From Chthonomonadaceae bacterium (GTDB lineage Bacteria > Armatimonadota > Chthonomonadetes > Chthonomonadales > Chthonomonadaceae): a DNA stretch of 64,000 nucleotides. Shown piece by piece: positions 21,593 to 26,949 of the stretch. The stretch spans positions 1-64,000 of the forward strand of contig DASRGZ010000040.1 in the NCBI GenBank assembly GCA_035650735.1, written 5' to 3'. Made by a program: the position numbers and the translations under genes. Numbering within the stretch: position 1 is the stretch's first letter; the number at the start of each line of letters is the position of its first letter. Below the pieces are notes generated by a model that was not told where the DNA came from, did not search any database, and worked only from the letters and a program-made list of their open reading frames with translations.

Positions 21593-23137
21593 TTAATTAT
21601 TGATCCCGGCAACGATATCTCCCACGCTTTCGGCTAAGACCATGTGCCGTTGCGTCTCGCTCGTGGCTTTGGGGTTGTTAATGGGCACGCCGCCATCGTC
21701 CTTGCCGTCCGGGCCAATGCTGTAGAGGAGATAGGCGGCGCCCATGCGCTTATAGCGCAGCGCCGTGTACAGGGCAAAGGGATCCTCCGGCACCTGAGAA
21801 AGGTAGGCCGGCACCAGCGCAGACAGGGTTTGCGGATAGGCGCCGTGCTCAAGGCGATAGGCACGGAGGGCCAGCGCCGTGAGCAGCAGCGCGTTCAGCG
21901 TCTCGCTGTAGGCCGCATCCTGAAAGCGTGCCTGCGTGAACGTCGGGGCCAGCCACCTGTTGATGGGGTCTTCGGGCACTGCCGGGGCAGCGCAGGGGAC
22001 CGCATAGGGCAGCTTGGCGCAGGCAATGGCCTGATCCATATAGCGCATGTAGTTATCCAATATCTGGCGCTTGCTATGCCGCAGCAAGAGCAGATAGCCG
22101 CTGACCTCCTCCACAAGAGACGGATCCTCCTGCCCGGCCTTAGCCCACTGCCGCAACCAGTCAGGATGGCGGAACGCCTCTTGCAGGCCAGCCAGCGTGA
22201 ACCACTTCTCTTCTTTCAGGGTTTCTGCTATGGGGACGTGAAGCCCCCGAATCCTCTCCAGCCGCCGCGCGGTGGCCCGGGCCTGCCCGGCGTTCAGGTG
22301 GTCTATCGCCTTCCAGAGCGGCTTTCGCCCGATAGCCTCACAGGCGATCCCGACGAGCTTCCCGATCAGTATCCCGCCATGGGGGATCTGCTCTCCCATC
22401 TCTATCGCATCCAGATCGCTGCGGACTGCGCCGGCCCAATCCCCGCGCGCAGCTTTCGTCTGCGCCTCCAGCGCCAGCAAGCGCGCTAGAGATCGGTATT
22501 TTGCCAGATGGGGGAAGACGGCATTCAGCGAGCGCGCGGGCGGCTCCTGGTAGGGATAGGCCAGGCCCTGCCGCAGTACCAGAAGCGCGCTGGCGTTCTC
22601 GCGCACTAACGCTTCCTTTTCCGCCAGCGAGTAGATATGATCCTGCGGGCGTTCCGGGCCTTTGTGCGCGCTCTGCGGCTGCTCTACCGCTTTGTCTGCC
22701 TGGGGCCGGCGATTGGACAAGGCAACGCCGATCTGGTCGTCATCGCGCAGGTTCATTCCAGCGGTGCGATAGAAGTCAAAGGCGTTGGGCTTAGGCATGG
22801 TGGGCGTGGGCACCGGGATGTCCGGGTCCGCGTTGACGTACTGCCACCAGGCGTACCCGCCGATGCTGAGAGCGGCGGCAAGGAGGCCCGCAGACAGCGA
22901 CAGACGCCGGAAAGCCCTTCGCCGGACCGGCAGATATTGGCCTTGCGGCACTGAGTCAAGGCCTACTGCCGCCCGCGTGCGCGCGATCCCGTCGGCAGGA
23001 ATCGGCTCTAGCTGCATACGCTCGATGCCCGCGGCAATGGCGGCATCTACGGACTCCGCAGCGCGGCATTCCGGGCACCAGAGACGGTGCCAGGCACTAG
23101 CGGGCCGGGCTCCTGGATGCAAACGCCGACAGTTCAT
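21593..23137 (-). CDS. Putative anti-sigma factor: Zn-finger-like N-terminus, TM, large extracytoplasmic domain ending in a GspG-like module
   Basis: H...CPEC motif, TM, C-terminal ALRAY....G.YP..L..LVP.YL..VP.DPF...YSIGPDG.DDGG; AAGGAGG RBS; overlaps the sigma gene. Confidence 0.65.
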   Translation of the reverse strand: MNCRRLHPGARPASAWHRLWCPECRAAESVDAAIAAGIERMQLEPIPADGIARTRAAVGLDSVPQGQYLPVRRRAFRRLSLSAGLLAAALSIGGYAWWQYVNADPDIPVPTPTMPKPNAFDFYRTAGMNLRDDDQIGVALSNRRPQADKAVEQPQSAHKGPERPQDHIYSLAEKEALVRENASALLVLRQGLAYPYQEPPARSLNAVFPHLAKYRSLARLLALEAQTKAARGDWAGAVRSDLDAIEMGEQIPHGGILIGKLVGIACEAIGRKPLWKAIDHLNAGQARATARRLERIRGLHVPIAETLKEEKWFTLAGLQEAFRHPDWLRQWAKAGQEDPSLVEEVSGYLLLLRHSKRQILDNYMRYMDQAIACAKLPYAVPCAAPAVPEDPINRWLAPTFTQARFQDAAYSETLNALLLTALALRAYRLEHGAYPQTLSALVPAYLSQVPEDPFALYTALRYKRMGAAYLLYSIGPDGKDDGGVPINNPKATSETQRHMVLAESVGDIVAGINN

Positions 23138-23714
23138 GGGAAAGGCCCTCCTTGTTGGGCAGGCTCTGAGGCGTGGGATTGAGGCTCTGGATCGAATCGC
23201 CCTCGGGAGGCTCCTGAAGCAGTTCCCGCAGGCGCTGGCGAGCCGTGAACAGGCGCGATTTGACGGTGCCGGGAGGCAGATTGAGCACCAGGGCGACCTC
23301 CGGCACGGAGAGTTCCTGGACATAGTAGAGCAAGAACGTGTCGCGTAGCTCCGGAGAGAGTTGCCCCAGGGCGCGCGCGAGAAGGATGCCGTCTAACTCG
23401 TGCGCTAACCCCAGGTCGGCCAGCTCCGCGACGGCTTCCAATGGGGTATCCTCTCGCCGGGAGCGCAGCCAGTGCGTGTACTCGTGGTAGGCAATCCGAT
23501 GCAGCCACGTCGCCAGCCTGGCCTCGCCTTTGTAGGTTTCCAGGGCCAGCCACGCCTTAACAAAAGTTTGCTGAGTCAGATCCTGGGCGATCTCGACGTT
23601 GCCGGTGAGATAACGCAGCAGGCGATAGATCCGCGGATAGTGCTGCCGGATCAATCGCTCTCCTGCCCTCTGATCCCCCTGGAGGATCTGCTTGACCCAC
23701 ACGATTTCGTGCAA
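23097..23714 (-). CDS. ECF RNA polymerase sigma factor
   Basis: A.DLTQ.TF.KAW, TWL.RIA, L...EVA..L..P.GTVKSRL..AR. Confidence 0.92.
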   Translation of the reverse strand: MHEIVWVKQILQGDQRAGERLIRQHYPRIYRLLRYLTGNVEIAQDLTQQTFVKAWLALETYKGEARLATWLHRIAYHEYTHWLRSRREDTPLEAVAELADLGLAHELDGILLARALGQLSPELRDTFLLYYVQELSVPEVALVLNLPPGTVKSRLFTARQRLRELLQEPPEGDSIQSLNPTPQSLPNKEGLSHELSAFASRSPAR

Positions 23715-24144: not shown

Positions 24145-24387
24145 ATACCTCCCCTAAACGGAAGCCAGAACTTGCTTTTGTCCTGTTTCTTCGATAGACT
24201 GCCCGGCCCACAAGGGAGAGCAAGGGGCGCCTCCCTGAACGGACAACTGTTCTGCGTCATTGTCTGAAATGAATGGGTGCCTGGCGCACTCCACCTAATT
24301 ACTCCATCCCTGATTACGGCCGCAAGATCACCATATTCTCTAAATATGGCTGCACCCCTGTGCTTTTCTTTAGAAAGGAGCACTGGA

Positions 24388-26097
24388 ATGGCCCGTCTTT
24401 CATGCTGGATCGTTTTGGTTCTGGCCCTCCTCATCGGGTTAGCGCCGGGCGCCGCACAGGCGAAAACCAACGGCAACCCCTTTTTCGTTATGAAAGGCAC
24501 CACGAACGGTGCGACTTTCGAGTACACCTTTGCATTCAAGGACTCGACTGGTAAGATGGAGGAGGTCTCGGGCATCGTTGCCGCCCCGCGTGGCATTACG
24601 GACGAGGGTCTGGCGGACACTATCAAGGACCAGCTCAACGCGAACGACAAAGTCAACAAGGAGTATCATTTCGGCCCAACCTTTAAATCTCCCACGACCG
24701 GCTGGTGGTACGTCTATGGGACCCCCCTACCCGGAAAGAAGCCGACAGCCATCAAAGAGATGATGCAAATCTCGCCGGATGTGATCAATTGCGCATTGGC
24801 CGTCGGGCCGGGGGTGGATCCTCTGCTCGGTACGGCGCAGTGGGATATCTTCAGCGCGAGCGGCCCTGCCGAACCAGGGGAGATCACCCTGGGAGTGGGG
24901 AATAAGCTCATTTCGACACTGACATTTGCCCCAGGCGGCGAGAAAAGCATCTTAACCATCAAGAGGGAACTGGTGAACGGCCTAAAAAGCGCGGGGTTTC
25001 TCGATTCCTATATTGATCCGCTGACAGGGTTCATCACTTCGCTGAATGTGACGACGGGGCAGCCCAATACCAGCGACATCGGCATCACCTTCATGACGAC
25101 GGATTGCGCTCTGGGCGGCTTCGCGCAGTTGACCGTGCCAGAACCCTCTCCTCTGTTGGCGCTCGGCCTCGGCGCTCTGGGCCTGGCCAGCCTTGCCTGG
25201 CGCTGCCGTTGGCGGAAAGCGATCCGGTTCGGCCCGCTGCTCCTGCTCGCGCTGTGCCTGCCTGCAGCGAGGAGCTCCGCAAACACCATCACCGTTGACC
25301 GGATCACCTATGATCGCATGGCGAACAAATACAGTATCAATATTTCGGGCGCGGGCGGGAGTCGAACCATCCACATTTTTCGGGAGGTGCCGCAGGGAGG
25401 GGATGTAGAGGTGACTCCTGCCGGAGCGATGACGACGGTAGACGGCAAGTACAGCCTGGACAATATTAACGGCGGCAAGAGCGGCTACTTCCGAATCGAG
25501 GTGGATCGGCCCGGCGGTGGGAAGGATACCTACAAGGGGATCGTGCGAGGCGACACCGGCAAAAAGATCGAGTCGCAGGAGCAGAAGGAGGCAAGGCGTA
25601 TGGGAATGGAAGAGGTGCGACTGAACGGCCTGCCGTTCGATTTCACCAACTCCGTTTTCGTGCCTGTCGGCACGGATCTGCACGATCAGTTCACGCTGAT
25701 CAACCTTTCGCCGGATACTCCCTACGCCTTCACGTCTCTGATTATCTACCAGGATCTCGATCTGGCTTTCTTCCATCCGGCTAGCTTCGACTCGCCCTCG
25801 GCTATCGCCTCCGGCGTCCTGGCCGAGGATCTGACTGGCGATCCGCTGGGCGTCGCACCCTCAGCGGGGCTGTCCGACCCTACGCTCACCTTCTCGATTG
25901 GTCCGGTGCGACCGGATCGGTACGACTTGCTGGTAGGAACGGCTGCTCCGATCCTACCCGATGGCAGCCTGGGTTCGCCGATTGGGTTCGCCGTCGGGCG
26001 TACGGCGGTCCCCGAGCCGGGCGCGCTTGGGTTGCTGGCAAGCTTAACAGTGCCCGGCGCTATCTTCCTGCTGCGCCGCCGAAATAGGACCTGCTAG
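24388..26097 (+). CDS. Secreted protein with two PEP-CTERM sorting signals (internal and C-terminal)
   Basis: AAGGAG RBS; signal peptide ..AAQA|K; VPEP-TM-basic at 25135; VPEP-TM-RRR at 26008. Confidence 0.85.
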   Translation: MARLSCWIVLVLALLIGLAPGAAQAKTNGNPFFVMKGTTNGATFEYTFAFKDSTGKMEEVSGIVAAPRGITDEGLADTIKDQLNANDKVNKEYHFGPTFKSPTTGWWYVYGTPLPGKKPTAIKEMMQISPDVINCALAVGPGVDPLLGTAQWDIFSASGPAEPGEITLGVGNKLISTLTFAPGGEKSILTIKRELVNGLKSAGFLDSYIDPLTGFITSLNVTTGQPNTSDIGITFMTTDCALGGFAQLTVPEPSPLLALGLGALGLASLAWRCRWRKAIRFGPLLLLALCLPAARSSANTITVDRITYDRMANKYSINISGAGGSRTIHIFREVPQGGDVEVTPAGAMTTVDGKYSLDNINGGKSGYFRIEVDRPGGGKDTYKGIVRGDTGKKIESQEQKEARRMGMEEVRLNGLPFDFTNSVFVPVGTDLHDQFTLINLSPDTPYAFTSLIIYQDLDLAFFHPASFDSPSAIASGVLAEDLTGDPLGVAPSAGLSDPTLTFSIGPVRPDRYDLLVGTAAPILPDGSLGSPIGFAVGRTAVPEPGALGLLASLTVPGAIFLLRRRNRTC

Positions 26098-26229
26098 ATA
26101 CCGTCAGAAGGGTGGCCTGAGAATGTATCCGCCGCATTAAGAGCCCCTAACACAACGTGGCTGTCAGGCTCTCCCCTCACCCCGGCCCTCTCCCTGCAAG
26201 GCAGAGGGAGAACGGGTTTGTTAGGCACT

Positions 26230-26949
26230 CTAAGGCCTGAATTCGCGGGCCAGAGCAAAAAAGTTCTCCAGGATGCGTTTGCCGTCGGAGAACCTCTTTG
26301 GTTCTAATAAATAGTCCTCAGGATGGAACTGCAAGCCATAGAGCGGGCGCTGGCGGTGGCGCATGGCCTGAATGCGGCACTCCGGCGTGGAGGCTAACAG
26401 TTCAAAGTCGGGCGGCAGCGTCTTGACCTCACAGTAGTGGGATTCGTAGCAGAGAGCGGTCGGGCCGAAGCCGGCAAAGAGCGGGTCGCGGCGGGCAGCC
26501 TCCGTAAGCTCCAGCGTGTAAAAGCCGCGCTCCATGAAGTAGTCGGGGTGGTAGTCTGGATTGGTGACAGGCTCACCGGGGCGCAGGCGGCGCATCGGCT
26601 CATCAAAGAGGCGCTCGACGCGGCAGAGGTCCTGATTAAAGACAAAGCCCAGCAGCTGGTGGCTGCCGCAGAGGGCCAGCGTGGGCGTGCGCGTGGACTG
26701 TACCCAATCGGCCACGCCCAGGAAGTTTCGCACCTCATACTGCTCGAAGGAGCGCGCAAAGCCGCTCATCACGACCGCCTCTGGCTCCAGATGGGCCAGC
26801 ATCTCCGGCGACGTGTGGTAGTAGGGCAGAACCAGGCACGGCACGCCGCCGCTCGCCGCCTCAAACCGCTGCGCGTGCCGCGCGTAGGTTCCCGCCCAAT
26901 TCTGCCACTCGTCTGGCTGGGCGAATCCGATATAGACAGTGATCCGCAT
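26230..26949 (-). CDS. Class I glutamine amidotransferase (GMP synthase GATase-like)
   Basis: LALCGSHQ nucleophile elbow, ESH..EV, QFHPE. Confidence 0.85.
   Translation of the reverse strand: MRITVYIGFAQPDEWQNWAGTYARHAQRFEAASGGVPCLVLPYYHTSPEMLAHLEPEAVVMSGFARSFEQYEVRNFLGVADWVQSTRTPTLALCGSHQLLGFVFNQDLCRVERLFDEPMRRLRPGEPVTNPDYHPDYFMERGFYTLELTEAARRDPLFAGFGPTALCYESHYCEVKTLPPDFELLASTPECRIQAMRHRQRPLYGLQFHPEDYLLEPKRFSDGKRILENFFALAREFRP

Follow-up and report, generated by a model that had tools for sequence, protein, structure and literature searches.

PEP-CTERM sorting tags are defined as single and C-terminal, and their discoverers took tags with long tails as probably dead. The gene at 24388–26097 (+) of the window, the whole 64,000-nucleotide stretch of DNA that we analysed, carries two such tags, one of them in the middle of the chain. 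Does this frame encode two surface proteins, and can a sorting tag serve as the joint between them? We think that it probably encodes two unrelated PEP-CTERM proteins in one secretory polyprotein, which would have arisen by fusion of neighbouring genes and would be cut by signal peptidase I into two tagged proteins.

The reading frame and its two tags

The frame translates without a stop into 569 amino acids, and its signals follow one another in the order signal peptide 1, module 1, tag 1, nine-residue basic loop, signal peptide 2, module 2, tag 2 (Table 1). The preliminary description of this DNA had reported neither a stop codon nor a methionine between the two halves. Indeed, after M236 there is no methionine up to the start of module 2, and codons 258 to 298 contain no in-frame ATG, GTG or TTG. 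Contigs of six runs from three studies (X1, X2, X3, X6, X4 and X5) cross the junction with 0 differing letters and 0 gaps, and a check of junction accuracy against them revealed no stop or frameshift. Each of the six is marked as a possible source of the DNA, and contigs drop rare variants; being identical, they exclude a sequencing error and provide evidence for one strain only. A further run, X7, gave two short identical pieces that lie outside the junction, and a locus search found a metagenome locus (L064) encoding the identical protein. GC3 is 0.73–0.78 in all parts of the gene, compared with a median of 0.73 for the host's other PEP-CTERM genes. The gene is real, and the observation of a two-protein frame is confirmed.

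Table 1. Positions of the features of the two-module gene in the window.
Feature	Position	Strand	Basis or remark
Shine-Dalgarno-like site AAAGGAG	24374..24380	+	From sequence; 7 nt ahead of ATG
Signal peptide 1, residues 1-25	24388..24462	+	Predicted cut after AQA; mature starts of stand-alone relatives align here
Module 1, residues 26-249 (224 aa), alpha/beta	24463..25134	+	No family model; 24 stand-alone relatives
Internal PEP-CTERM tag 1, V250-K277: VPEP, hydrophobic helix, basic cluster	25135..25218	+	TIGR02595 and PF07589 above cut-off
Nine-residue loop, 5 basic; tail of tag 1 and likely n-region of signal peptide 2	25201..25227	+	Sequence
Internal signal peptide 2, A278-A298; h-region F281-L291	25219..25281	+	Predicted cut between SSA and NT
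Module 2, residues 299-540 (242 aa), possibly two Ig-like beta-sandwiches (modelled)	25282..26007	+	55 stand-alone relatives
Terminal PEP-CTERM tag 2, residues 541-569 (from V541), in the style of the host genome's own tags	26008..26094	+	TIGR02595
Stop codon TAG	26095..26097	+	Sequence

No sigma-70 promoter was found at the gene, terminator-like sites were no more frequent than expected by chance, and the region past the stop codon folded no better than shuffled sequences (z −0.17). A dispersed repeat of ~100 nt, for which blastn gives about 97 matches across the genome, lies in that region at 26129–26235, between convergent genes. On the other side, at 21593–23714 (−), an ECF sigma factor is followed by an unannotated membrane protein; a low-GC gap of 670 nt separates this divergent pair from the gene.

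Each tag displays the PEP motif, the hydrophobic helix and the basic cluster. When the tags were scanned apart, TIGR02595 scored 18.9 bits for tag 1 and 18.3 bits for tag 2 (cut-off 16), and in the genome scan the scores were 23.3 and 23.0 bits, respectively, which bears out the earlier claim of two complete PEP-CTERM signals. The double hit proposed as a check was obtained with TIGR02595 and failed with Pfam PF07589, which matches tag 1 only and not tag 2. Named PEP-CTERM families (NF038129, PepA NF033554 and others) scored the whole protein far below their cut-offs, with matches at or just before the tag. At the N-terminus, residues 1–25 are predicted from sequence to form a signal peptide in register with those of the relatives. 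In the excerpts of Haft et al. 2006 (PMC1569441), tags lie at the extreme C-terminus with a median of 3 residues after the tag. Tag 2 has this position, but 320 residues separate tag 1 from the end, which makes the chain a variant and not a canonical PEP-CTERM member. In the genome as a whole, 29 of 34 TIGR02595 matches are above the cut-off; there is one exosortase (PF09721/TIGR02602), and signal peptidase I genes occur at three places. Of five named genomes compared, the two from Armatimonadetes gave the best scores with the MnmE encoded in the window, and the host is probably a member of the Armatimonadota.

The tags also differ in style, as scored against a reference set drawn from a single domain family. 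Tag 1 has a log-odds of −10.2, like planctomycete and verrucomicrobial tags, and only 1 of 69 host-group tags is equally low; tag 2, at +16.7, resembles host tags and is equalled by 0 of the 74 tags of the other group. This sequence pattern suggests that the gene may be a mosaic of imported and native parts. No donor was found, and module 2 was absent from the five planctomycete genomes searched.

Module families and the predicted internal signal peptide

The full HMMER scan returned 92 hits, one of which is the query protein. Stand-alone proteins make up most of the rest, 24 related to module 1 and 55 to module 2; the others are one fragment, two long proteins with these modules, and nine long proteins that match at tags or junctions only. 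The preliminary description had called for homologues of each half as separate genes, and both sets are thus at hand; the two modules occur together in none of the 91 other hits. Most stand-alone relatives are 270–350 residues long; they have a signal peptide and often a terminal tag as well, and both families consist of ~280-aa proteins that are predicted to be secreted. Among the module-1 relatives, P0006, P0007, P0041, P0048 and P0078 have an ~80-residue beta-rich end domain in place of the PEP-CTERM tag. The profiles of the two families overlap in the tag only (17 columns); an internal duplication was ruled out because the modules have nothing else in common. Word-index homologue searches recovered only the protein itself with the whole sequence, nothing with module 1 and one relative with module 2.

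We modelled each module with AlphaFold from its predicted mature start, which gave a pLDDT of 92.7 and a pTM of 0.88 for module 1 and 93.4 and 0.77 for module 2. The best fold match of module 1 (Z 7.7, rmsd 2.8, 103 aligned) is to phage tail and flagellar subdomains; at this best Z the model appears to have no clear solved structural relative. One subdomain of module 2 matched a SiiE Ig repeat at Z 8.6 (rmsd 2.0 over 78 aligned residues) and the other matched ApaG at Z 8.2 (rmsd 3.2 over 102), both little above common arrangements. Foldseek gave no useful match, its TM-scores staying under 0.3 for both modules. Among the atlas look-alikes, those of module 2 were weak, and those of module 1 were unnamed or phage proteins with recognition below the stated threshold, a lead only. 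Additionally, the two halves of the module-1 model (2–120 and 121–223) each weakly match similar phage tail or flagellar subdomains, and the model allows that module 1 is possibly an old internal repeat. The products are likely to be non-enzymatic surface or matrix proteins.

The stretch that follows tag 1 has a basic n-region, an uncharged h-region and small residues at −3 and −1. The −1 column of the predicted cleavage site is alanine in 40 of 43 stand-alone module-2 relatives aligned to residues 272–569, a count that the presence of the query junction in the alignment can favour by pulling Ala onto Ala. All 55 relatives were aligned, and 12 were left out as incomplete at the N-terminus (at least 9 residues before the site were required). 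Pairwise alignment with the relative P0003 gives the identical register. The second signal peptide claimed earlier therefore lies in register with those of the stand-alone relatives, and its prediction at residues 278–298 is well supported.

To recognize such stretches elsewhere we used a simple rule as detector and not SignalP. Tried on 1380 random positions within mature domains, it gave 93 hits. When terminal tags were read through artificially, 7 of 86 passed, against 5 of the 7 internal tags that occur naturally in the same set of loci.

Recurrence of the junction and origin of the pair

The layout of tag, short basic loop and signal peptide recurs, including in planctomycete genes, and is not unique to this gene. 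The search for other proteins with an internal PEP-CTERM tag and signal peptide yielded 11 among the HMMER hits, besides those in planctomycete genomes. These 11 carry 20 internal tags, every one followed by a signal-like stretch under the simple rule, and methionine is absent from the loop in 14 of the 20 (in one of the 14 it is the first h-region residue). P0087 carries at least six tags and, like P0086, is named Planctomycetales. P0005 is a tandem of two module-1 relatives and P0070 is a module-2 relative followed by another domain; thus both families have joined such chains with other partners.

Two further sets were collected. The 79 loci fetched with P0066 contain 97 tags by rule, comprising 86 terminal, 4 long-tailed and 7 internal ones. 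A hit in the gene's own genome (C197) was rejected as a false positive of the tag rule. A junction profile run on five planctomycete genomes gave 30 loci, several of which repeat loci of the P0066 set, with 17 internal tags; 16 have the signal, and 11 of those are Met-free. Loop length over 37 junctions, this one included, has its median at 9 residues, and its distribution trails off into long, Met-containing linkers of 26–39; 26 of the 37 loops lack methionine. Because all sets were found with junction-bearing queries, the frequency of the layout is overstated. Each of the five other genomes tested has an exosortase, and four of them carry such junctions. In one planctomycete genome (G415; loci L151, L146, L156 and L172) a near-fixed junction with a six-residue basic loop occurs at 7 places, three of them in one 1243-codon frame.

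No orthologue of the pair was found in 60 related genomes beyond matches in the tag region, and neither module was found in 400 genomes of the phylum (6 candidates scored per genome). Among the 36 matches of junction profile A3 in 40–41 genomes of the family, there was no other stop-free full-length match. A locus search for a close relative of module 2 found none in genome contigs and only the identical copy in metagenomes. With no orthologue of the pair, selection on this junction cannot be shown.

Three other loci resemble the junction in part. In the same family, L048 (G023:C18) has an internal tag and a Met-free signal peptide; its frame starts at a contig edge with a sequence that we take to be oxidoreductase-like, and it is possibly misassembled. 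A second internal PEP-CTERM tag in the gene's own genome, at L023:972-2516 (G000:C210:2971-4515), has an eroded basic tail and a long open linker with a second VPEP remnant. In the downstream half of this frame a ribosome site, an ATG and a signal peptide are all retained, and the first half is stand-alone in relatives; an untidy read-through of this kind implies that such fusions also arise by accident. At L114, a terminal tag and one TGA are followed nine codons on by an in-frame gene with a signal peptide. Read in a presumed order, L114, the C210 read-through and the tight Met-free joints would fit as stages of fusion by stop loss.

Proposed processing, alternatives and known systems

By the positive-inside rule, Sec would export module 1 until the helix of tag 1 stops transfer, the loop, five of whose nine residues are basic, would be held inside, and export would resume at the second hydrophobic stretch as a helical hairpin. 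Signal peptidase I, judging by homology, would then cut after residue 298 and free module 2, itself held by tag 2, and under the family model exosortase would remove or replace both tags. Both modules would end up on the outer side of the inner membrane, each with a sorting tag of its own. For the modules to come apart, a single signal-peptidase cut is sufficient; the only step that calls for exosortase is the release of module 1 from the hairpin tail. The presumed origin is a fusion of two neighbouring PEP-CTERM genes, tolerated because the basic tail of a tag can serve as the n-region of the next signal. The polyprotein interpretation given in the preliminary description is supported; cleavage, anchoring and a 1:1 ratio are what we infer from it. 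More broadly, we hold as an evenly balanced proposition that PEP-CTERM tags act as self-processing joints with which exosortase bacteria build 2 to 6 or more interchangeable surface proteins per gene, cut by the housekeeping signal peptidase as viral envelope polyproteins are, this gene being a fresh mosaic with an internal tag of planctomycete style and a last tag of host style in an Armatimonadota-like genome.

It is unlikely, in our judgement, that the gene is instead a recent accidental fusion, a strain-specific dead end whose chain is made but whose second module stays unexported or whose product is broken down. Such a history would agree with the lack of an orthologue in the genomes searched, with runs that all represent one strain, with the second read-through in the genome and with a terminal tag at L114 that is only one stop codon from an in-frame signal peptide. 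In the excerpts of Haft et al. 2006 (PMC1569441), moreover, the few long-tailed tags are regarded as possibly non-functional. The junction, however, is tight, without intergenic remnant or methionine, and its loop equals the median of the 37 junctions. Both modules, signals and tags are also intact with a GC3 like that of host PEP-CTERM genes, and even a recent fusion could still be processed.

Cleavage at the second signal peptide is the step that a further alternative, also improbable and ranked just behind, would remove: the product would be one membrane protein whose two outside domains are held by a helical hairpin and by tag 2, or processing would be confined to tag 2. The topology would permit this, and the c-region has an arginine at −4. 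Small residues at −3 and −1, a preceding proline and a short h-region are nevertheless features of a signal peptide, in register with the cleavage sites of the relatives. Other junctions likewise keep A-x-A-like sites, which an uncleaved anchor would not need.

There is a slim chance that module 2 is also, or mainly, made alone from a weak internal start, the ATC at 25222, with the long frame incidental. From codon 279 the translation would begin with a complete 20-residue signal peptide, and a weak purine-rich stretch, GGAAAG, lies just upstream. The upstream match is short, though, ATC is a very poor start codon, and the loop is Met-free in 26 of the 37 junctions. As no stop follows tag 1, the fused chain would be made anyway. 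Finally, a sequencing or assembly error hiding a stop codon or frameshift is very improbable: although every supporting run may itself be a source of this DNA and was compared as contigs, the six agree letter for letter over the junction across the three studies, and L064 encodes the identical protein.

If the chains are cut as we propose for the two-module polyprotein, they would represent a general bacterial route to polyproteins without a dedicated protease, and annotation would be merging or mis-starting many planctomycete and related surface proteins. The ~50-residue junction would also be a tool for exporting several proteins in a fixed ratio from one frame. Lacking an orthologue, the locus is a weak witness for selection, yet it is a small two-module test substrate and a clean way of finding out whether exosortase requires its tag to end the chain.

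We found no description of PEP-CTERM polyproteins in the openly readable literature searched, and database curators may know such proteins; the layout seems to be undescribed for PEP-CTERM. The words 'internal' and 'fusion' are absent from the excerpts of Haft 2023 (10.1101/2023.06.07.544157). In the excerpted CrtB paper (PMC12188702) tag peptides were not detected, so the evidence for PEP-CTERM exosortase cleavage there is indirect. Like the exosortase substrates described by TIGR02595 and PF07589, this protein has an N-terminal signal peptide, a domain without known family and a tripartite tag, in a genome with many tagged genes and an exosortase. It differs in that tag 1 is followed, in the same chain, by another signal peptide and another tagged protein. 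A mid-chain sorting tag has also been read as a two-gene fusion in MXAN_5598, whose internal MYXO-CTERM was attributed by Guo, Haft and Wall 2025 (PMC11980579) to a probable gene fusion and proposed to be processed. That case involves another tag and protease, and the excerpts of that paper speak neither of a second signal peptide or tag nor of a recurring class of such proteins.

Viral envelope polyproteins (bunyavirus, flavivirus and alphavirus) also alternate stop-transfer helices with internal signal peptides and are cut by host signal peptidase, so that a single chain yields several membrane-bound proteins. Those are products of eukaryotic viruses in the ER, whereas here the gene is a cellular bacterial one and the route is Sec. 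Among bacteria, the cytochrome b-c1 precursor FbcH of Bradyrhizobium japonicum gives two proteins from one gene by means of an internal signal sequence. FbcH serves a single respiratory complex, with no sorting tag and no interchangeable modules, whereas the gene described here joins two tagged modules.
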